From: Mobula hypostoma
Taxonomy: Eukaryota
DNA length: 64,000 nucleotides
NCBI RefSeq assembly: GCF_963921235.1
Contig: NC_086097.1
Span: forward strand, 121,150,001 to 121,214,000
Reading direction: 5' to 3'
Shown here: positions 8,633-59,214 of the stretch, one piece after another
How positions within the stretch are numbered: the first letter of the stretch is position 1
Layout: each line of letters starts with the position of its first letter
Program-made: the position numbers and the translations under genes
Notes under the pieces: model-generated
Database searches by the model: none
Seen by the model: the letters and a program-made list of their open reading frames with translations, nothing else
Told to the model about the DNA's origin: nothing

Positions 8633-10066
8633 TGTTTCCTTAAAGTTGTTATAGCTGTACGCCCTACCTATAGCTCCCCCTACCTATTAAAAGCTCCGAA
8701 TGGCACGCAATTCAAACAGCCTCTGACAACTAGGTCTAACACCTGGCCTTCACGGATGGCTTAGCAAACCTACTAAGCCCAGCAGAACTGTTTCTACTGA
8801 CAGAAGAGGCAAAGGTGGAATACTGGTGCCTTAAAACCAGTTCCTTCAGGCAGATGTGGCTTGTCAGCTGTGGTTGGCAGCTCATCTAGAAGAAAAACTC
8901 TGATCTCAAACCTCCGCTGCCTTGTGGCTATACCCACTCGTGGGGAAGGCTTCAGGAGTGAACCATCAGGGACAAGTCAGTGATGCTGCTAGTGCCGAAC
9001 TGTATCGGTCTCTGCCGTTCCTTTGGATTCATCATATGAGTGGAGAAGGGCAGCTTGCGACATATGCAACAGCTCGCTCTCCATATTGTACTACCCTGGC
9101 TCGGGTATCTAGACAGTGTTACGTACCCCGTAACTGGGTTGCCAAACTAGCAGAAATGGATCACTCAGTTGGAGTCTGGATTACTAGAACTAAGAAAGTT
9201 TTATTAAAGAAACAAGCAACACAGTACTCTAATCAAAAGGATAATAAATGCAACAGTTCAGCAATGATAAACACACATGTACACAGAATTAGGATAACAG
9301 GATCAATCAAGCTCTATCGTCGTCTAGGGGTAAATGACCAGTTTCAAAGTGACGCAAAATTCAGTTCAATTGAATTCAGTTCAGTTCGCAGTAATCACTG
9401 CCGTGGGAGATGGACAGTGGGGGGGAAGGAGAGAGAGCGCAAAACAAATGAACATTCAAACGGCTTCCACACAGACCTTCGATATTCTTCGCAGTCAGCT
9501 TTCGGGCGAGCCCTTTGTGATGTCTTCTGAGGTCACCGACCGTGACCCCTCCGTTTCCAGATACGATCATTTCTCTGCGGTGAACCTGGCACCCAGGCAA
9601 GGGCGGACACACACAGGTTCCCGCCGATCGTGCCTTTCCACCCTGTGCGTCTATGGCTTAGTCCCGCAACCAGCCTTCCAAAACTTCCCACCGACTTGTG
9701 GGAGACGCACCGCTTCCAGGGTCTCGTTTCCTCGGGATGTTGTGTGTGCCTTGCCTTAGCGAACCTGTCCCTTTTTATCCCCCTGCTGGGGTATCGCCTG
9801 TCCATCACTTCAAACAGTTCAGGGTTCAAAGGGGAAGCCGATCTTGACAGCTCTCCTTCCGTTACTCTCTCCCGTCCCTTCATTAACATCTCCAAATGCT
9901 GCTCCATTGTTTTCCTTATCTCTCTCTCTCCTGAAGACAGGTGGCAGACCAACTGCTAATCCCACTGGTGCCAGCACAGGACAGCTAACATCTCAATCTG
10001 TGTGTATTCTCGTCACAACAGCTAGGATACAATAGCCATGGTCAACCCTGACCAATTTAGCCCTCA
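8633..10066 (+). mobile_element. Non-coding interspersed repeat (SINE-like, possibly derived from an RTE 5'UTR), split by a solo LTR
   Basis: Second copy at ~50600-51185; flanked by TATAGAGCTGCA at 8621-8632 and 10067-10078. Confidence 0.7.
9117..10017 (-). mobile_element. Solo LTR, 901 bp, 4-bp TSD (Gypsy- or ERV-type)
   Basis: TGTTACG...CGTCACA termini; ACAG at 9113-9116 and 10018-10021; minus-strand GATAAAAA (9772-9779) and AATAAA (9200-9205). Confidence 0.85.
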
Positions 10067-10119
10067 TATAGAGCTGCAAATGAACGCAGCAGGCCAGGCA
10101 GCATCTGTAGGAAGAGGTG

Positions 10120-10161
10120 CAGTCGACGTTTCAGGCCGAGACCCTTCGTCAGGACTAACTG
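10120..10161 (-). ncRNA. Minimal type I hammerhead ribozyme, intact core
   Basis: Minus strand CAGUUAGUC-CUGACGA-AGGGUCUCGGCCU-GAAAC-GUC-GACUG: CUGANGA and GAAA core, stem II, palindromic ACGU stem III, GUC cleavage triplet, stem I. Confidence 0.85.
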
Positions 10162-11754
10162 AAGGAAGAGTGAGTAAGGGATTTGAAAGTTGGAGGGGGA
10201 GGGGGAGATCCAAAATGATAGGAGAAGACAGGAGGGGGAGGGATGGAGCCAAGAGCTGGACAGGTGATAGGCAAAAGGGGATACGAGAGGATCATGGGAC
10301 AGGAGGTCCGGGAAGAAAGACAAAGGGAGGGGACCCAGAGGATGGGCAAGAGGTATATTCAGAGGGACAGAGGGAGAAAAAGGAAAGTGAGAGAAAGAAT
10401 GGGTGCATAAAAATAAGTAACAGATGGGGTACGAGGGGGAGGTGGGGCATTAGCGGAAGTTAGAGAAGTCGATGTTCATGCCATCAGTTTGGAGGCTACC
10501 CAGACGGAATATAAGGTGTTGTTCCTCCAACCTGAGTGTGGCTTCATCTTTACAGTAGAGGAGGCAGTGGATAGACATGTCAGAATGGGAATGGGATGGG
10601 GAATTGAAATGTGTGGCCACTGGGAGATCCTGCTTTCTCTGGCGGACAGAGCGTAGATGTTCAGCAAAGCAGTCTCCCAGTCTGCGTCGGGTCTCGCCAA
10701 TATATAAAAGGCCACATTGGGAGCACCGGACGCAGTATATCACCCCAGTCGACTCACAGGTGAAGTGTTGCCTCACCTGAAGGACTGTTTGGGGCCCTGC
10801 ATGGTGGTAAGGGAGTAAGTGTAAGGGCATGTGTAGCACTTGTTCCGCTTACACGGATAAGTGCCAGGAGGGAGATCAGTGCCCTGAGGTGTTGGAGCCG
10901 GCGAGATCAATGGCAGGAGCCGCAATCTGAAGTTCATGCCTGCTAGTTTCAGGGCCAGCAGGCTCTGGAGTCCGTAGATGTAGGCCGGCTCCAACACCTC
11001 AGGGCATATTCAAAACCCGGACTCCAGCAACGACCATGGCCACCTTCACAGCGATTGCGCAACCACCAACTGCAACTCCAGCCTTGAACTCCAGGCCGGG
11101 TCTTTATGTGCTGCTGTTGTGACTCCCGTCTCCCCTTCCCCCACCACCACTCCACAGCCCCGTCTTCCTCAGATCCCACTGTCAACTCCTGGGCCCTCAG
11201 AGGCTCCATCTTCCTCTCACCCCAACCCTCCCCTCTCCATTGACACCCCCAGCCTCCCCCCTCCGATCCCAGCTCTCATCCGTGCCGGGTCTTTACCATC
11301 CCCTCTGACTTTCAACTGTCGGAGGCAGAACGCTCTGTTCTCAGTAAGGGCCTCACGTTTGTCCCCCTTCACCCACACCTCAGCGAGTTCCGTGTTTGCC
11401 ACGATGCGGAACTTTTCTTCCGCCGTCTCCGTCTCCGAACCTACTACTTCGACAAGGACTCTTCCACCCCCACCGATGATCCCTTCTCCCGTCTTCAACC
11501 CTCCTCTTCTTCATGGACACCCCGCTCTGGTCTTCTGCCTGCTCTGGATCTCTTTATCGCTAACTGCCGACGGGACATCAACCGTCTCGACTTCACCGCA
11601 CCTTGTCCCCATTCCAACCTCACTCCTTCGGAACGCTCTGCTCTCCACTCCCTCCGCACTAATCCTAACCCCATTATTAAACCCGCCGATGAGGGGGTCT
11701 GCTGTTGTAGTCTGGCGTACTGACCTCTACCTTGCCGAGGCACAGTGACAACTC

Positions 11755-13479
11755 GTGGATACCTCCTCTTATTTACCCCTCTATCGTGACCCCACTAAGG
11801 AGCACCAGGCCATTGTCTCCCACACCATCACCGACTTTATCCGCTCAGGGGATCTCCCATCCACTGCTACCAACCTTATAGTTCCCACACCCCGCACTTC
11901 CCGTTTCTACCTCCTACCCAAGATCCACAAACCTGCCTATCCTGGCCCACCTATTGTCTCAACTTGCTCCTGCCCCACCGAACTCGTTTCTGCATACCTC
12001 GACACGGTTTTATCACCCCTTGTTCAATCCCTTCTCACCTATGTTCGTGACACTTCTCACGCTCTTAAACTTTTCGATGATTTTAAGTTCCCTGGCCCCC
12101 ACCGCTTTATTTTCACCATGGATGTCCAGTCCTTATATACTTCCATCCCCCATCAGGATGGTCTCAAAGCTCTACGCTTCTTTTTGGATTCCAGACCTAA
12201 TCAGTTCCCCTCTACCACCACTCTGCTCCGTCTAGCGGAATTAGTCCTTACTCTTAATAATTTCTCCTTTGGCTCCTCCCACTTCCTCCAAACTAAAGGT
12301 GCAGCTATGGGCACTCGTATGGGTCCTAGCTATGCCTGCCTTTTTGTTGGGTTTGTGGAACAATCTATGTTCCATGCCTATTCTGGTATCCGTCCCCCAC
12401 TTTTCCTTTGCTACATCGACGACTGCACTGGCGCTGCTTCCTGCACGCATGCAGAACTCGTTGACTTTACTAACTTTGCCTCCAACTTTCACCCTGCCCT
12501 CAAGTTTACCTGGTCCATTTCCGACACCTCCCTCCCCTTTCTAGATCTTTCTGTCTCTGTCTCTGGAGACAGCTTATCCACTGATGTCTACTATAAGCCT
12601 ACTGACTCTCACAGCTATCTGGACTATTCCTCTTCTCACCCTGTCTCTTGCAAAAACGCCATCCCCTTCTCGCAATTCCTCCGTCTCCGCCGCATCTGCT
12701 CTCAGGATGAGGCTTTTCATTCTAGGACGAGGGAGATGTCTTCCTCTTTTAAAGAAAGGGGCTTCCCTTCCTCCACTATCAACTCTGCTCTTAAACACAT
12801 CTCCCCCCTTTCACGTACATCTGCTCTCACTCCATTCTCCCGCCACCCCACTAGGAATAGGGTTCCCCTGGTCCTCACCTACCACCCCACCAGCCTCCGG
12901 GTCCAACATATTATTCTCCGTAACTTCCGCCACCTCCAACGGGATCCCACCACTAAGCACATCTTTCCCTCCCCCGCTCTCTCTGCATTCCGCAGGGATC
13001 GCTCCCTCCTCAACTCCCTTGTCCATTCGTCCTCCCCATCCCTCCCCACTGATCTCTCTCCTGGCACTTATCCGTGTAAGCGGAACAAGTGCTACACATG
13101 CCCTTACACTTCCTCCCTTACCACCATTCAGGGCCACAAACAGTCCTTCCAGGTGAGGCAACACTTCACCTGTGAGTCGACTGGGGTGATATATTGCGTC
13201 CGGTGCTCCCGATGTGGCCTTTTATATATTGGCGAGACCCGACGCAGACTGGGAGACCGCTTTGCTGAACATCTACGCTCTGTCTGCCAGAGAAAGCAGG
13301 ATCTCCCAGTGGCCACACATTTTAATTCCACATCCCATTCCCATTCTGACATGTCTATCCACCGCCTCCTCTACTGTAAAGATGAAGCCACACTCAGGTT
13401 GGAGGAACAACACCTTATATTCCGTCTGGGTAGCCTCCAACCTGATGGCATGAACATCGACTTCTCTAACTTCCGCTAA
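11755..13479 (+). CDS. Penelope-like reverse transcriptase plus GIY-YIG endonuclease; open for 574 codons, N-terminus upstream broken by a frameshift and a stop
   Basis: FYLLPKIHK, TMDVQSLYT, GAAMG, YIDD, FLDL, YYKPT; Cys linker CKRNKCYTC; VIYCVRCSRCGLLYIGET..RFAEH..VATHF; IIKPAD in another frame near 11680. Confidence 0.93.
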   Translation: MDTSSYLPLYRDPTKEHQAIVSHTITDFIRSGDLPSTATNLIVPTPRTSRFYLLPKIHKPAYPGPPIVSTCSCPTELVSAYLDTVLSPLVQSLLTYVRDTSHALKLFDDFKFPGPHRFIFTMDVQSLYTSIPHQDGLKALRFFLDSRPNQFPSTTTLLRLAELVLTLNNFSFGSSHFLQTKGAAMGTRMGPSYACLFVGFVEQSMFHAYSGIRPPLFLCYIDDCTGAASCTHAELVDFTNFASNFHPALKFTWSISDTSLPFLDLSVSVSGDSLSTDVYYKPTDSHSYLDYSSSHPVSCKNAIPFSQFLRLRRICSQDEAFHSRTREMSSSFKERGFPSSTINSALKHISPLSRTSALTPFSRHPTRNRVPLVLTYHPTSLRVQHIILRNFRHLQRDPTTKHIFPSPALSAFRRDRSLLNSLVHSSSPSLPTDLSPGTYPCKRNKCYTCPYTSSLTTIQGHKQSFQVRQHFTCESTGVIYCVRCSRCGLLYIGETRRRLGDRFAEHLRSVCQRKQDLPVATHFNSTSHSHSDMSIHRLLYCKDEATLRLEEQHLIFRLGSLQPDGMNIDFSNFR

Positions 13480-13762
13480 TGCCCCACCTCCCCCTCGTAC
13501 CCCATCTGTTACTTATTTTTATGCACACATTCTTTCTCTCACTCTCCTTTTTCTCCCTCTGTCCCTCTGAATATACCTCTTGCCCATCCTCTGGGTCCCC
13601 CCCACCCCTTGTCTTTCTTCCCGGACCTCCTGTCCCATGATCCTCTCGTATCCCCTTTTGCCTATCACCTGTCCAGCTCTTCCCTCCCCCTCCTGTCTTC
13701 TCCTATCATTTTGGATCTCCCCCTCCCCCTCCAACTTTCAAATCCCTTACTCACTCTTCCTT

Positions 13763-13804
13763 CAGTTAGTCCTGACGAAGGGTCTCGGCCTGAAACATCG
13801 ACTG
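13763..13804 (+). ncRNA. Minimal type I hammerhead ribozyme with stem III G>A change (GAAACAUC)
   Basis: CAGTTAGTC CTGACGA AGGGTCTCGGCCT GAAAC ATC GACTG. Confidence 0.75.
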
Positions 13805-14404
13805 CACCTCTTCCTACAGATGCTGCCTGGCCTGCTGCGTTCACCAGCAACTTTTATGCGTGTTGCTTGAATTTCCAGCATCTGCAGAATTCCTGTTGTT
13901 TATAGAGCTGCAATGTTACTTCGTGGGTCTTGAACTTGATTCCCCAAATAATGAAGGCTAACAAAGCCAACGCCTTCTCAAACACCCTATCAATTTGCAC
14001 AACTTTCAGTGTATCCCCTTCTTCACACAGCTAAGAATTCTGCCATTAACATTGTATTCTGCTTCTGTATTAATCAAATATTTTTTTTATTCTGGTTAGA
14101 AAGCTATTAAAAACTGCTTTGTCCTATTTAAACTCTGGACTGAGTATGGCTAGCTGACCAGAAGCCTGATGATATTACAGGTGGTGGGCTCCCTTGAACT
14201 GATGCATGAAGTTCTTGTCACAGATTCTGCTAGATCTTTGTGGCAGAGTTTTCTCACATTCAGAAGCAAAGTGACAGCTGGCACTATTCATTGCAATTTT
14301 TGACTCAATGAATTTTTTATCTGATTGATTTTTTTTCCAGCTATCAGTGCACCAGTCCTAAGATCTGTTTGAATCTATATCACCTGAAATACTTATTATA
14401 ATTG

Positions 14405-15186: not shown

Positions 15187-15840
15187 AAACACAAGGAAAT
15201 CTGCAGATGCTGGACCCAACGTAGACTGGGAGATCGTTTCGCTGAACACCTACGCTCTGTCCGCCACAGAAAACAGGATCTCCCAGTGGCCATACATTTT
15301 AATTCCGCATCCCATTCCCATTCTGATATGTCTATCCACAGCCTCCTCTACTGTAAAGATGAAGCCACACTCAGGTTGGAGGAACAACACCTTATATTCC
15401 GTCTGGGTAGCCTCCAACCTGATGGCATGAACATTGACTTCTCTAACTTCCGCTAATGCCCCACCTCCCCCTCATACCCCATCCGTTATTTATTTATTTA
15501 TTTACACATTCTTTTTCTTTCTCTCCTTTTTCTCCCTCTGTCCCTCTCACTATACCCCTTGCCCATTCTCTGGGTTTCCCCCCTCCCCCTTTTCTTTCTC
15601 TCTAGGCCTCCTGTCCCATGATCCTCTCATACCCCTTTTGCCAATCAACTGTCCAGCTCTTGGCTCCATCCCTCCCCCTCCTGTCTTCTCCTATCATTTT
15701 GGATCTCCCCCTCCCCCTTCCACTTTCAAATCTCTTACTAGCTCTTCCTTCAGTTAGTCCTGACGAAGAGTCTCAGCTCGACTGTACCTCTGCCTAGAGA
15801 TGCTGCCGGGCCTGCTGTGTTCACCAGCAACTTTGATGTG
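15187..15840 (+). mobile_element. Penelope-like 3' fragment (EN C-terminus and 3'UTR) with a short inverted 5' cap
   Basis: RRLGDRFAEH..MNIDFSNFR; TSD TCTGACATCTTGC (15174-15186) / TCTGACATACTGC (15841-15853); its hammerhead has lost GAAAC. Confidence 0.9.
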
Positions 15841-16534
15841 TCTGACATACTGCCTATACTCTCCTCCAATCACCTTAAAATTATGCCCTCTCGTATGAAC
15901 AACTACTGCTTTGGGAAAAAGTCTCTGGCAAAACACACAATCTATGCGTCTTATCTTGTACATCTCTAAAAAATCATCTTTCATCCGCCTTCACTCAAAA
16001 GAGAAAAGCCCAATAAGACATGCACATATAGAATGTACCTTTATGAAAGGTACATTCAGGAAGTTAAATGCTCCATATTTCAATTTAAACTCACGGAATA
16101 AAGCTGCAGGCCAACCAGACTATTCTCAGTTTCCACAGGTTCAAGGCTTTTTATTCTTCCATGCTGCTCTGAGCAACTTACTTTCAGTTTAACTAACAAA
16201 GATTCCACTGCCATTTGGCAAGGTTTCCCAGCAATAAAGCTATTTCAGCATACTATGCACCCATGATAAAATGAACAATTAATAACACAGATGTTGTGCT
16301 ACAATCAGAAGAAAGCATGACAAAATAAACACACAAAATTCTCTACGCTTTTGGAGATCAGCACAAATTTGTATATGAAGCTTTTTCATAGAAACACATT
16401 GTTAATATTATTTATGGCATAAACAGATAATCATTACCTTTCCTAAATTACACCAATGATGACACTTCCTTCGTTGGCAACAAAATGCTTTAGAATGACT
16501 TCTTGTAATAAAAGATGCTACAATGAACGTATAC

Positions 16535-31435: not shown

Positions 31436-32148
31436 CTTAGTGGCCACTCTATTAGGTACAACTGTACTGCTACTCGTTAATGCAAATAACTAATCAATCA
31501 TGTGGTGGTAATTCAATGCATAAAAGCATGCAAACATGGTCAAGAGATTCAGTCAACACACACAAAAAATGCTGGTGAACACAGCAGGCCAGGCAGCATC
31601 TATAGGAAGAGGTACAGTCAACGTTTCGGGCCAAGACCCTTCGTCAAGAGATTCAGTTATTGTTCAGATCGAACAACAGAATGGGAAAGAAATGTCATCT
31701 AAGTGACTTTGACTGTGGAATGATGGTGCCAGATGGGGAGGTTTAAGCATCTCAGAAACTGCTGATCTCCTGGAATTTTCATGCACAACAGTCTCTAGAG
31801 TTGACAGAAAATGAAGCAGAAAACACAAAAAAATCCAGTGAGCTGCAGTTCTGTGGGTGAAAATGCCTTGTTAACGGGAGAGGTTGGAGGCAAATGGCCA
31901 GACTGGTTCAAGCTGACAGGAAGGTGGCAGTAACTCAAATAACCTTAAGACTATAAGACCATAAAACAAAGGAGTAGAAATCGGCCATTCGGCCCATCGC
32001 GTCTGCTCTGCCATTTTATCATGAGCTGATCCTTGCATTACAACAGTGGTGTGCAAAATAACATCTCTGAATACAGAAAACATTGAAGCTATAGCAGCAG
32101 AAAACTACACTGGGGTGAAAACGGCACCTAATAATGTGGCCACTGATT
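31436..32148 (+). mobile_element. Tc1-type non-autonomous DNA transposon carrying Penelope and CR1-tail insertions
   Basis: TIR AGTGGCCACTCTATTAGGT / ACCTAATAATGTGGCCACT, TA on the left; second copy at 55712-56271. Confidence 0.8.
31554..31643 (-). mobile_element. ~90-bp Penelope 3'-terminal insertion truncated within the hammerhead core
   Basis: TSD CAAGAGATTCAGT at 31541-31553 and 31645-31657. Confidence 0.8.
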
Positions 32149-57180: not shown

Positions 57181-59050
57181 AGTGCCAATAACTAACACAT
57201 TCCAAAGGCGGCCCACAAGTGCTACCACACACCCAGTGCCAACCTTGCATACCCACAGCTCACTAACCCTAACTATAAGTCCTTTTGGAATATGGGAGCG
57301 AACTGGAGCATCCAGTGGAACCCCACACGGTCATGGGGAGAACGTGAAGACTCCTTACAGATGGTGGCAGGAATCAAAACCGGATTGGTAAGTGCTGTTG
57401 CTGGTACTGTAAAGTGTTATACCAACCACTACTCCACCAAAACTGAAAGTGTACAGTTGATGGCTGCTCTCCTTCTAGTCAGGTGCTTTAGAGACTTATA
57501 GTGTGTCTCTTCTTCCTGCTGTCATTGCGAAGGAGGTACGGGAGCCTTACGTCCTTCCCCACAAGGATAAGGAACAGTTACTGCCTATCAACCATCAGGC
57601 TCCTGAACTAGTGTGAGTAAACTAAACTCTGAACTGATACCCCAACCCATGGACAATATAACTCATATTCTCAGTATTATTTATCTGTGCATGTACAGTT
57701 TTTATTTGCTTACGATTTATTTGTTCGTTTGTTTAAATTTTTGCAGCTTCTCTTCTTCAGCACATTGATTGTCAGTCTTTGTGTGTAGTTTTTCATTGAC
57801 TCTTTTGTATTTCTTTGTTCTACTGTGAATGCCTGCAAGAAAATAAATCTCAAGGCGCTATATGGTGAAATGTCTGTACTTTAATAATAAATTTACTTTG
57901 AACTTTGAATTTTACATTAAGGTTCATTCTTCAGGATGTTTATTTGCTTTATTCAAGACTGTGCTTCTCTGAAAACCTAGCCCTGTTATTGATCAACTGA
58001 AAGTATTCTGCTAAATTGCCACAGCTAATCTTTCCCTGTTACATAATTTGCTATGGTAATAGGAAGCAATATTCCTTGTTTACCATATGCACTGTGCACC
58101 CCATTTGCCCTAATTTCTGTAAAACTTCAGAATCAGAATCAGAGTCAAGTTTAATATAATTTGCATATGTTGTGAAATTTGTTGTTTATGGCAGCAAAAC
58201 ATAAAATACAATAATAAGTATGGATCCTGGATAATTGGGCCATTGGTTACTCGGGCATCAGTTTATTTGGGACAACTCTTAAAGAACAAAAATTAATTGT
58301 GAAAATTGCCAGGATTCCCTTTGTTTATTTGGGACACTATGCCACTTAATTGGGACAGAAAACTGTTGCCAAACAGTTTCTAAGTAGTGTCATATGCGCG
58401 CATTTGTGTGGTCATTAGACACTACGGCCTGCTTAGAGCGAACATTTTCTAAATAGCATCAGTTACTGTGTTTGTGTTCAAAACGCAGTGATCAAGGACC
58501 ATCAGCCTCCGACAACAATCGTGCTAAGCTCCGAGTTGAAGTTGATGAACAACATTCTGGCGTATGAGGCATCATTTTCTAGGTGGTTCAGGATGGATTG
58601 GAGGGGCCAGGTCTATGGCATCATCAGTGGACTGGTTTGAGTGGTAGATAAACTGGAACAGGACCAATGTAGCTGGAAGATGGCATTTTATGATCCATGA
58701 CCAACTGCTCAAAGCACTTCATGATTGTCGAGGTCAGTGCCACTGGGCAGTAATCGTATAGGCCAGTTACCATCACTCTCACTGGAATACAGGGCTACCT
58801 AGAAGCCTGCAGGCACTGTGAACTGTTTCAGAGAGATATGCAAGTTATCTGTTAAGACTTTGAAAGCTGGGCTGCACAGTCCTTCAGTACCTGATGAGGT
58901 ATGTTGTCCAACCCTGTGGCTTTGCTTGGGTTTACTCTGGCTTGGTTGGGCTACATTCCTCAAAACCAGTTACATTCAATAAAACCAGTTATTATATCTT
59001 GAACCATCTAACTCCTGAACCAGTGGATAACTTCACTCACCTCAACTCTG

Positions 59051-59214
59051 TACAGTCGACATTTCGGGCTGAGACCCTTCGTCCTGACGAAGGGTCTCGG
59101 CCCGAAACGTCGACTGTACCTCTTCCTAGAGATGCTACCTGGCCTGCTGCATTCACCAGCAACTTTGATGTGTGTTGCTTGAATTTCTAGCATCTGCAGA
59201 ATTCCTCGTGTTTA
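59051..59214 (+). mobile_element. 164-bp hammerhead foldback mini-element
   Basis: 59051-59083 is the reverse complement (2 mismatches) of 59086-59118; perfect TSD CACCTCAACTCTG at 59038-59050 and 59215-59227. Confidence 0.9.
59081..59116 (+). ncRNA. Minimal type I hammerhead core
   Basis: GTC CTGACGA AGGGTCTCGGCCC GAAAC GTC GACTG. Confidence 0.8.

Follow-up and report, generated by a model that had tools for sequence, protein, structure and literature searches.

A dead, probably Neptune-type Penelope-like element with minimal hammerhead motifs on both strands in Mobula hypostoma

Introduction

Why does one Penelope-like element (PLE) in the genome of Mobula hypostoma carry hammerhead ribozyme motifs on both strands? 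The element occupies 10080-13900 of the 64,000-nt stretch that was analysed (the window; contig NC_086097.1, positions 121,150,001 to 121,214,000). A preliminary description had presented it as a recently inserted Neptune-type element, as a recently active reverse transcriptase (RT)/endonuclease/ribozyme system, and as potentially novel. The novelty of a ribozyme-bearing Neptune element fails, because minimal hammerheads (min-HHRs) of fish Neptune PLEs are already in print: Cervera and De la Pena (2014, PMC4209133) described them for fish elements of the Neptune, Poseidon and Xena types. What our analysis supports is a canonical PLE in which the endonuclease is C-terminal, the linker is rich in Cys and the 3' UTR contains a minimal type I hammerhead motif. 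Judged by its sequence, the element is probably a Neptune-type PLE with a min-HHR, a known class.

Layout of the insertion

The insertion is a composite of two arms in opposite orientation:

10067-10079, no strand: left target-site duplication (TSD), TATAGAGCTGCAA, a perfect 13/13 direct repeat with 13901-13913
10082-10880, minus strand: inverted arm, a reverse-complement duplicate of 13047-13843
10880-10984, minus strand: junction segment, the reverse complement of 105 nt found in forward orientation in other copies
10984-13900, plus strand: forward copy, 5'-truncated by comparison with other copies
13901-13913, no strand: right TSD, TATAGAGCTGCAA, paired with 10067-10079

The perfect 13-bp TSD described earlier around 10080-13900 was thus borne out at both ends. 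In the repeat analysis of the element, no TSD bracketed either arm separately; the single 13-bp duplication encloses the whole composite. No (TA)n target was seen at this insertion. Between the left TSD and the inverted arm lie 2 nt, 10080-10081, that are unaccounted for.

The inverted arm contains the end of the linker and the GIY-YIG coding region together with most of the 3' UTR, and its 3' limit corresponds to 13843, 57 nt short of the 3' end of the forward arm. Four inverted repeats between the arms (I1-I4) are 95-98% complementary, and global alignment of arm against arm over ~794 bp gave 17 substitutions (5 of them CpG transitions) and 3 indel events, or 2.1%. A minus-strand ORF fragment in the inverted arm (10450-10848) matches Pfam GIY-YIG with an E of 5.7e-3. 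At the junction, the first 23 nt of the segment (10880-10902) form a perfect inverted repeat (I5) with 10984-11006, and the matches of 10903-10984 to other copies are all on the opposite strand from those of the adjoining piece. This orientation was absent from all 27 other loci having the anchor. A weak Rfam mir-671 match (E 0.46, from a search of 9900-14100 at E<=10) corresponds to the hairpin of the junction segment, 10880-11006.

The forward copy is without ~505 nt of the 5' region, and a further 82 nt are present in inverted form only, giving a total of ~590 bp. A direct upstream 3' end was found in 13/29 family loci, stopping ~505 nt before the equivalent of 10984, and an inverted one in 3/29. 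Pseudo-LTRs, inverted 5'-truncated copies and a 3' tail all occur in the family; the window copy has the inverted arm and the tail, with no direct upstream pseudo-LTR. Since the 82 nt at 10903-10984 are confined to the inverted arm and ~2 kb are confined to the forward arm, neither arm is a plain copy of the other.

The hammerheads in both orientations, as previously noted, are indeed present on both strands, but only because 10082-10880 is an inverted duplicate of 13047-13843; they are not a designed feature but a consequence of the inverted 800-bp duplicate of the 3' region. Inverted, 5'-truncated layouts are reported as typical of PLE insertions (PMC8557442), and the layout of 10080-13900 is ordinary for the known PLE class. 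We also considered whether two independent insertions in opposite orientation came to abut by chance. The family is dense, with 15 further 3' fragments in the 64-kb window, and PLEs reportedly insert into or beside earlier copies (PMC6765202). A coincidence of this kind is nevertheless highly improbable, given the one perfect duplication around the composite and none around a single arm, the 23-nt overlap of the arms at the junction, and the recurrence of inverted pairs in the family (7/40 sampled places).

Coding region and its decay

The coding region of the forward copy falls into two parts:

10984-11748, plus strand: broken N-terminal coding part, with indels and a stop relative to other copies
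11749-13479, plus strand: open frame for RT, linker and GIY-YIG, 576 codons from stop to stop

Relative to five of five compared copies, the N-terminal part has a 7-nt deletion at ~11265 and a 1-nt insertion at ~11698, so that 11266-11697 is read in a different frame. The 7-nt deletion is common to 3/29 other copies. An in-frame TGA stands at 11746-11748, a site with a sense codon in 29/29 other copies. The start codon falls in the missing ~590 bp of the 5' region; the open frame of a full-length copy begins ~230 codons further upstream, and its N-terminal domain is common to relatives. The open RT-linker-GIY-YIG frame given earlier as 574 codons does contain these domains, but it is 576 codons long and only the portion of a broken gene that follows the in-frame stop.

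Within this frame, RT motifs (PKIHKP, 11917-11934; FTMDV, 12112-12126; YIDD, 12412-12423) precede a CX4CX2C linker (CKRNKCYTC, 13075-13101), whose Cys columns are conserved, with few exceptions, in the 16 sequences covering them. The GIY-YIG region (13183-13236, GVIY-CVRCSRC-GLLYIGE) has two Cys between GIY and YIG and shows the CCHH arrangement; FAEH, THFN, EQHLI and DGMN follow, with H, E and N residues. Pfam searches gave matches of the 576-codon frame to RVT_1 (E 3e-4) and GIY-YIG (E 1e-3), both under Pfam's own cut-offs, and a protein search with the 576-aa frame returned 939 relatives (best E 5e-224). The closest proteins are ray and shark gene models, nameless or wrongly named. Alignment with 16 relatives was colinear across all 576 aa, as a single ORF with RT followed by a C-terminal GIY-YIG.

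With the C-terminal EN+ PLEs of the Neptune group (Arkhipova 2006, cited in Craig et al. 2021, PMC8557442), the element shares CCHH with two Cys between GIY and YIG. Also in common with Neptune as described there are the CX2-5CxxC linker upstream of GIY-YIG and the vertebrate host, as well as pseudo-LTRs formed by partial tandems, copies that are inverted and 5'-truncated, and a tail that may be present at one end (PMC8557442). The Cys-rich linker, taken earlier as the mark of Neptune, is present, but Nematis has it too (PMC8557442). We infer the Neptune placement of the window element from this linker, which is equally found in Nematis, and Neptune itself is paraphyletic in Craig et al. 2021 (PMC8557442).

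The idea that the window copy is an active RT/endonuclease/ribozyme system had to be abandoned: the ~590 bp and the start codon are gone, two frameshifts and a stop interrupt the gene, and the sense hammerhead has lost G16.2. The window copy is dead.

Hammerhead motifs in the window

The pattern CTGANGA-N10-16-GAAACRTC occurs three times in the window (10125-10152 minus, 13772-13799 plus, 59084-59111 plus), against 0.02 matches expected from shuffled windows, none of 100 of which reached three. Core pattern and family comparison delimit the two motifs of the composite:

10120-10157, minus strand: minimal hammerhead, the family's majority form; stem I 5' strand 10157-10153, CUGACGA 10152-10146, bulged A 10145, stem II and loop 10144-10133, GAAA-C-G-U-C 10132-10125, stem I 3' strand 10124-10120
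13767-13804, plus strand: minimal hammerhead, decayed; stem I 5' strand 13767-13771, CUGACGA 13772-13778, bulged A 13779, stem II GGGU 13780-13783, loop CUCG 13784-13787, GCCU 13788-13791 (U at 11.1), GAAA 13792-13795, C15.2 13796, A at 16.2 13797 (G in the family), U 13798, C17 13799, stem I 3' strand 13800-13804

The minus motif is predicted to be cut between 10125 and 10124, and over 55 nt the sequence here is identical to 16 of 36 instances from 30 other loci. The plus motif lies 293 nt downstream of the ORF stop codon and ~100 nt before the 3' end. A motif ending in GUC, previously stated for both strands, is true of the minus copy, but the plus copy reads GAAAC-AUC. The AUC form was found in 6 of the 36 instances, GUC being the family majority. 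The palindrome 15.2-16.2 is accordingly ACGU in the minus copy and ACAU in the plus copy, a CpG-type change of the window copy.

Both copies have the core C3-U-G-A-N-G-A9, G12-A-A14, A15.1/U16.1 and H17, and these columns are invariant in 24 aligned sequences and in 9 copies of at least 5 families. Position 11.1 is U in both window copies, and with G10.1 and the extra A present it would form a G-U pair in place of G10.1-C11.1; older subfamilies have C11.1, as do 20 of the 24 aligned sequences. Stem II has just 4 bp, two being wobble pairs. The minimum-energy fold of the monomer pairs the core GACG with CGUC.

In topology, the motif agrees with the metazoan PLE min-HHRs (PMC4209133): both are type I and lack loop III, so that helix III could form only between two copies, through the 15.1-16.1 palindrome. 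Further features in common are the extra nucleotide between A9 and G10.1, the short helix I (5 bp in the window), the position in a terminal repeat downstream of the ORF, and the occurrence mostly as solo motifs or opposite-strand pairs 100-700 bp apart (PMC4209133). Helix II of the window family has 4 bp as opposed to 7-8 bp in Schistosoma, and U11.1 (G-U) departs from the G10.1-C11.1 pair called 'highly conserved' in that work (PMC4209133). The proposed check with Rfam Hammerhead_1 returned nothing, and no Rfam hammerhead model matched at the gathering score over the whole window or at E<=10 over 9900-14100. Such a result is expected because the motif has no stem III hairpin loop; Cervera and De la Pena needed a special descriptor for min-HHRs (PMC4209133).

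Conservation of the hammerhead block

In 80 metagenome loci of relatives (32-63% aa identity), a core-only pattern gave 20 matches, compared to none in reversed sequence. Behind a 1-nt bulge, 19 of the 20 matches form a stem II of 3 bp or more, and a stem I of this minimum length is present in 18. Where at least 200 nt of room was available, the motif was located on the coding strand in 9/22 loci, 66-309 nt downstream of where the ORF ends. Stem I/II covariation, for which the preliminary description had asked across copies, was found in distant relatives: in 24 sequences, 90.5% of cells were paired, compared to 67.5% after shuffling (0/500 reached the observed value) and 25-43% when slid, although 16 of the 24 rows were drawn by a regex requiring paired stems and the unfiltered 80-locus core-only count is the fairer test. 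Two-sided changes were seen in 5/5 stem I pairs and 3/4 stem II pairs of this set. Within the families of this genome, stems I and II are conserved and not covarying.

In 9 copies that represent at least 5 families, block 13770-13802 hardly varies, while the 65 nt upstream are unalignable; no other non-coding piece is as conserved between families as the hammerhead block. Many contigs in four public runs from four organisms share 13768-13804 only. In these four runs, G at 13797 makes up 92, 82, 59 and 51% of contig depth and C at 13791 makes up 19, 40, 37 and 67%. The 22 listed runs are all contigs, none of them recorded as RNA, and so speak neither for nor against cleavage. The exact 25-nt core with U11.1 occurs 48,865 times in the genome as opposed to 0 for the reversed control, its C11.1 form 10,762 times (control 0), and the U7/C11.1 pattern 7,575 times (control 41). 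On these comparisons, the assignment of the motif to the min-HHRs holds as a reading of sequence.

3' ends and the mode of insertion

13480-13900, plus strand: 3' UTR and pseudo-LTR part, from the alignment of 9 copies of at least 5 families

Within this part, 13480-13766 is unalignable between families. Behind the hammerhead block follow a moderately conserved block (13812-13868) and an optional tail (~13869-13900, ~32 nt), the latter inside the 30-40 bp given for PLEs (PMC8557442). Arms from 40 sampled places terminate at 13899-13900 (22 arms), at 13858-13875 (23) or elsewhere (3). One arm is tailed and the other untailed in 6 of the 7 inverted pairs among these places. These one-tailed pairs match both the tail that PLE copies bear at just one of their ends (PMC8557442) and the behaviour of PAc, the Poseidon element of Anolis carolinensis, which cuts both target strands and extends them from two internal RT start sites whose spacing equals the genomic tail (Frangieh et al. 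2024, PMC11167929). In the window family, 3' ends likewise fall into two classes, and there are inverted pairs that combine a tailed with an untailed arm. PAc is from another clade, which lacks the Cys linker present in the window family, and its HHR sits at the pLTR-ORF junction, overlapping the start codon (PMC11167929), whereas the window HHR follows the stop codon.

We consider it very probable that the locus represents a highly abundant Neptune-type PLE in a dead, 5'-truncated copy with an inverted 3' duplicate at its left, likely from a single insertion primed on two strands, and that each arm carries a min-HHR predicted to cleave only in pairs. Both strands of a 13-bp staggered target cut would have primed reverse transcription in one event. 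The forward arm would have been copied from the tail-containing start site, primed off one target strand, and the inverted arm primed off the other and joined at the 23-nt overlap in the manner of twin priming. In L1 twin priming, reportedly described by Ostertag and Kazazian in 2001, an inverted 5' part and a direct 3' part share one TSD with a short duplication at the junction. The window copy is similar in its 23-nt junction duplication within one TSD. The second primer of L1 twin priming anneals internally, whereas the inverted arm of the window also starts in the 3' region of the element, so that both arms carry 3' UTR.

As an alternative origin of the inverted arm, a single cDNA could have snapped back and primed its own hairpin synthesis, or a long palindrome could have been rearranged later. 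In the family, many short insertions form near-perfect palindromes with arms ending at an equal coordinate (13751/13749 at L185, 13742/13742 at L195, 13760/13759 at L214), and the mini-insertion at ~59050-59212 of the window, with a 13-bp duplication read by eye, has an inner arm of only ~33 nt. Moreover, a later deletion in an unstable palindrome could explain the ~2 kb missing inside the inverted arm. We regard this origin as rather unlikely, as each arm has sequence that the other lacks and the combination of tailed and untailed arms fits two start sites on two strands. Priming on both strands, which we prefer, needs in its simple form an extra template jump or a later deletion, because the inverted arm stops at 13843, which falls 25 nt before the place where tail-less arms usually end, and is without the ~2 kb between its pieces.

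Role of the hammerhead block

In head-to-tail source elements, helix III would form between two sense hammerheads by pairing of the palindrome A15.1-C-G-U16.1, and cutting after C17 would trim unit-length RNA. Coding-strand dimer cleavage would be impossible in the window copy because it has a single sense motif and G16.2 is lost.

The block may instead be kept mainly as a recognition or folding element of an RT-bound 3' module, with self-cleavage dispensable or residual. The commonest form has the weakened G10.1-U11.1 pair (48,865 exact cores versus 10,762 with C11.1), although the higher number of exact copies may merely reflect a younger burst. The block is always accompanied by the second conserved block, which reaches the tail-less terminus at ~13868. 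PLE min-HHRs cleave poorly in vitro, dimers included (PMC4209133), and PAc inserts in vitro without HHR activity, its insertion being unimpaired by HHR mutants and no RNA-seq reads ending at the cut site (PMC11167929). Naiads proliferate without canonical HHRs (PMC8557442). However, the invariant positions are exactly the catalytic ones (CUGA.GA, GAAA, U16.1, H17), none of which a mere protein-binding hairpin would need, and variation falls at positions that active hammerheads leave free (N7, loop 2, compensated stem sequences). We therefore hold a mainly structural role to be possible, though on balance doubtful.

A broader and still less likely speculation is that the conserved 3' module of all PLE families in this elasmobranch genome, consisting of the hammerhead block and the ~65 nt to the tail-less terminus, is a handle for the RT on both target strands, that the main amplifier (~49,000 cores) had a hammerhead weakened by G10.1-U11.1, and that catalysis is secondary to structure. 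If so, thousands of tailed/untailed inverted pairs would be genomic footprints of two-strand, two-start-site priming.

Abundance and age of the family

As a single locus, the insertion is of little importance, being a dead copy of a known class whose 'two ribozymes' are a by-product of PLE insertion. The family is a useful natural data set, with a dominant G-U variant beside older G-C subfamilies, 3' ends of two classes and frequent inverted pairs. It has at least 67,202 exact-pattern cores (the sum over the counted forms) in one vertebrate genome, far more than the ~4,000 of coelacanth and ~9,000 of Xenopus called 'remarkable' by Cervera and De la Pena (PMC4209133), and its 3' ends number in the tens of thousands. 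Its genomic footprints mirror the two-strand, two-start-site reverse transcription that to date has been demonstrated for a single lizard element, in vitro only, and the family could serve to test how important hammerhead catalysis is for PLE spread.

Retention of CpGs in the element was confirmed, with an observed/expected ratio of 0.50 against 0.35 for the window. The window copy is 96.1-96.6% identical to 11 other copies, which are mutually 98.35% identical on average; with the 2.1% between its arms, it is young, not new, and 'recently inserted' applies only in a relative sense. In line with the intact master copy suggested before, copies with long open frames do exist elsewhere in the genome: all 75 other best matches span 575-576 of the 576 aa at 94-95% identity, 72 of the 75 are free of stops in this region, and 16 have open frames of at least 990 codons.

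Layout and origin of the insertion

The Penelope-like element (PLE) lies in a genome of 3.48 Gb as a 3.8-kb composite of three pieces, enclosed by a perfect 13-bp direct repeat, TATAGAGCTGCAA (10067-10079 and 13901-13913), which bears out the target-site duplication reported in the preliminary description.

Pieces of the composite
10082-10880, minus strand: inverted arm, reverse complement of 13047-13843
10880-10984: junction piece between the inverted arm and the forward copy
10984-13900, plus strand: forward element copy

The arms 10082-10880 and 13047-13843 differ by 17 substitutions, five of which are CpG transitions, and by three indel events. Compared with all other copies examined (27 of 27 loci), the 82 nt at 10903-10984 lie in the opposite orientation, and a perfect 23-nt inverted repeat flanks them. 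On the minus strand, the left part starts from this 5' segment and, after skipping about 2 kb, continues to 13843; the right part, on the plus strand, begins 23 nt inside the same segment and ends at 13900. One copy of the target-site duplication adjoins the 3' end of each arm, and this layout is the expected product of two-strand priming, in which both strands of a staggered target cut would prime reverse transcription and leave a pair of arms in opposite orientation. For PAc, the Poseidon PLE of Anolis carolinensis, in vitro reverse transcription primed on both strands of the cut is described, as are two internal RT start sites, the distance between which is the "tail" (PMC11167929).

Sampling 40 places in genome order showed 22 arms of the family ending at 13899-13900, 23 at 13858-13875, and three elsewhere; one arm was tailed and the other untailed in six of the seven inverted pairs. 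Snap-back synthesis remains a rival for the origin of the inverted arm, favored by the many short insertions of the family that are nearly perfect palindromes, whereas the two classes of 3' ends and the tailed/untailed pairs support two-strand priming. Because the inverted arm in the window ends at 13843, 25 nt before the usual tail-less end, and lacks about 2 kb, the two-strand model in its simple form has to be supplemented by a further template jump or a subsequent deletion.

Identity between the forward copy and 11 other copies is 96.1-96.6%. Substitutions amount to about 2.8%, and one in four is a CpG transition; the mean identity among those 11 copies is 98.35%. The observed/expected CpG ratio is 0.50 in the element versus 0.35 in the window. 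The copy described as recently inserted is indeed young, yet older than the latest burst of its family. The two arms diverge by 2.1%, which would give an insertion age of the order of 10 million years if one RNA gave rise to both arms and if an assumed rate of about 1e-9 per site per year holds.

The hammerhead motif

The motif consists of CUGACGA, one extra A, a 4-bp helix II with a CUCG loop, GAAA, C-G-U-C, and a 5-bp helix I, the same anatomy as described for the minimal type I hammerheads (min-HHRs) of Cervera and De la Pena 2014 (PMC4209133). As no loop follows C-G-U-C, helix III is possible only between two copies. Hammerheads had been noted in both orientations; the motif does lie on both strands, but as a single 3'-UTR motif present once per arm, because 10082-10880 is an inverted duplicate of 13047-13843. 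The Rfam covariance models, suggested as a check, gave no hammerhead match. They expect a stem III hairpin, which is absent here, so their silence is a property of the models rather than counter-evidence.

A chance origin of the motif matches is excluded, the window containing three against 0.02 expected. Genome-wide, the exact core occurred 48,865 times versus none in the reversed control, a one-letter core variant 10,762 times versus none, and the U7/C11.1 pattern 7,575 times versus 41. In 80 metagenome loci encoding relatives, a core-only pattern without any stem requirement was found 20 times, versus none when reversed; helix II had at least 3 bp with a 1-nt bulge in 19 of these 20 motifs and helix I at least 3 bp in 18. 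The motif was located 66-309 nt 3' of the ORF, on the coding strand, in nine of the 22 metagenome loci with room for it. Across 24 aligned motifs, 90.5% of the pairing cells were paired, versus 67.5% in shuffles (0 of 500 reached the value) and 25-43% when slid, and nine of 11 pairs had changed on both sides, although 16 of the 24 had been preselected by a stem filter and the core-only count is the cleaner support. The covariation anticipated across copies is seen among relatives, whereas within the Mobula hypostoma genome the stems are conserved instead.

The block 13770-13802 is nearly invariant in nine copies of at least five families, in which the 65 nt upstream are not alignable, and many records, on contigs from four organisms, share only 13768-13804. 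Folding of the monomer gave an alternative minimum free energy structure, not the hammerhead. The assignment as a hammerhead of the min-HHR type holds on these sequence patterns, and self-cleavage is predicted. A diverged hammerhead of another family was also seen at a different locus (L071:3892-3933), about 360 nt 3' of a family copy; its stem I has A-U in place of the window's U-A, which is a compensatory change, its bulged nucleotide is U, and its loop reads CACG.

Both motif copies of the element carry U at 11.1, forming a G-U pair. C at this position, the state in older subfamilies, accounts for 19-67% of contig depth in four of the 22 runs listed, all of them Logan contigs with no RNA run among them; the U is a CpG transition carried by the dominant young lineage. 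The plus copy has A at 16.2 (13797), where G makes up 51-92% of depth (four runs) and is found in 30 of 36 sampled instances. The A breaks the helix III palindrome, and the GAAAC-GUC motif originally described is therefore retained by the minus copy but not by the plus copy. Since the coding strand of the element contains a single sense motif, itself decayed, together with an antisense one, a hammerhead dimer would be impossible within one transcript of the locus. Published min-HHRs are described as cleaving poorly in vitro (PMC4209133; review PMC6765202), and PAc insertion is reported to proceed without HHR activity (PMC11167929).

Coding part and condition of the copy

The open frame at 11749-13479 (576 codons) is colinear with 16 relatives over the alignment (45-70% identity) and contains YIDD, the linker CKRNKCYTC, GVIY-CVRCSRC-GLLYIGE, and downstream H, E, and N residues. 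Pfam matched RVT_1 and GIY-YIG in the frame, both below its own cut-offs. Craig et al. 2021 (PMC8557442) describe two Cys between GIY and YIG as a mark of every canonical EN+ PLE, and the CX2-5CxxC linker as one that Neptune shares with Nematis. The Cys-rich linker is thus present as stated, but as a mark common to both groups. The class assignment is right, and the element may be called Neptune-type on its motifs and vertebrate host.

The closest proteins are ray and shark gene models (Mobula, 93% identity; Hypanus, 76-87%), and public gene models with likeness to the PLE ORF include P0001, P0004, and P0103. Two models, "divergent protein kinase domain 1C isoform X2" (Hypanus) and "chitinase domain-containing protein 1 isoform X1" (Mobula), match 65-79% of the PLE ORF at 76-86% identity and therefore likely contain mis-annotated PLE exons. 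In a Stegostoma model, the stop codon is read through into the 3' UTR, and the final residues, LMKGLRPKRQ, resemble the translation of a hammerhead core.

The copy in the window is dead. Other copies reach about 505 nt further 5', and upstream of them a direct partial copy ending at the equivalent of 13900 was found in 13 of 29 loci and an inverted one in three. In one full-length copy the frame stays open for at least 1,076 codons and includes an N-terminal domain common to distant relatives; the forward copy in the window begins about 230 codons into that protein. Compared with five of five other copies, it carries two frameshifts, a 7-nt deletion near 11265 and, near 11698, a 1-nt insertion. 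An in-frame TGA occupies 11746-11748, a codon that is sense in 29 of 29 other copies. The long frame, given earlier as 574 codons, is real but merely the part 3' of this TGA.

Outside this locus the family appears to be in good condition. Each of the other 75 best matches spans 575-576 of the 576 residues, with 94-95% identity; 72 are free of stops and 16 have open frames of at least 990 codons, in line with the suggestion that an intact copy may exist elsewhere in the genome. The locus itself is ordinary: the preliminary description was largely right on the sequence and overstated novelty as well as function, the copy being broken. The family is a good resource, with copies in very large number, a G-U variant that dominates, and a clear tailed/untailed arm asymmetry.

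Descent of the window's copy from an already frameshifted master was considered and rejected: three of 29 copies (L032, L034, and L039) carry the same 7-nt deletion but, at 3.3-3.6% substitutions, are no closer to the window than the rest. As the deletion also sits in a C/T-rich short direct repeat, recurrent slippage is as likely an explanation for these three as an old defective source.

Short copies and neighboring PLE ends

Loose contig ends at 13768 had suggested that 5' truncation might have a sharp hotspot where the hammerhead begins. Of about 52 hammerhead-bearing arms in a sample selected by the core, 24 begin at 13740-13772, at most 32 nt upstream of the core. Among 27 independent copies picked only by 13806-13900, however, 11 have starts spread over 13735-13801, some inside the motif, and the hotspot was rejected; the very short copies form a broad excess without a sharp stop. 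They may reflect RT drop-off, template switching at the folded motif, or snap-back. They dominate among the sampled loci L183-L252, and the arms of inverted pairs often have an identical stop coordinate.

A mini-insertion of the same lineage lies at 59050-59212 between copies of a 13-bp duplication (CACCTCAACTCTG); an inner inverted arm of about 33 nt adjoins a 135-nt forward arm, which extends from the hammerhead core to the tail and has C at 11.1. Fifteen more PLE 3'-end fragments (71-94% identity) occur at 3201-55613, and PLE tails are a major component of the region.

PLE 3' ends near the element
15213-15841: PLE 3'-end fragment
31544-31649: PLE 3'-end fragment, hammerhead with T at C3
32973-33770: older inverted pair of PLE 3' ends

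Three sampled loci (L225, L226, and L227, on contigs C116 and C108) share the same element ends and the same secondary matches at equal offsets. They probably represent a single segmental duplication, or assembly copies left uncollapsed, and were tallied as one.
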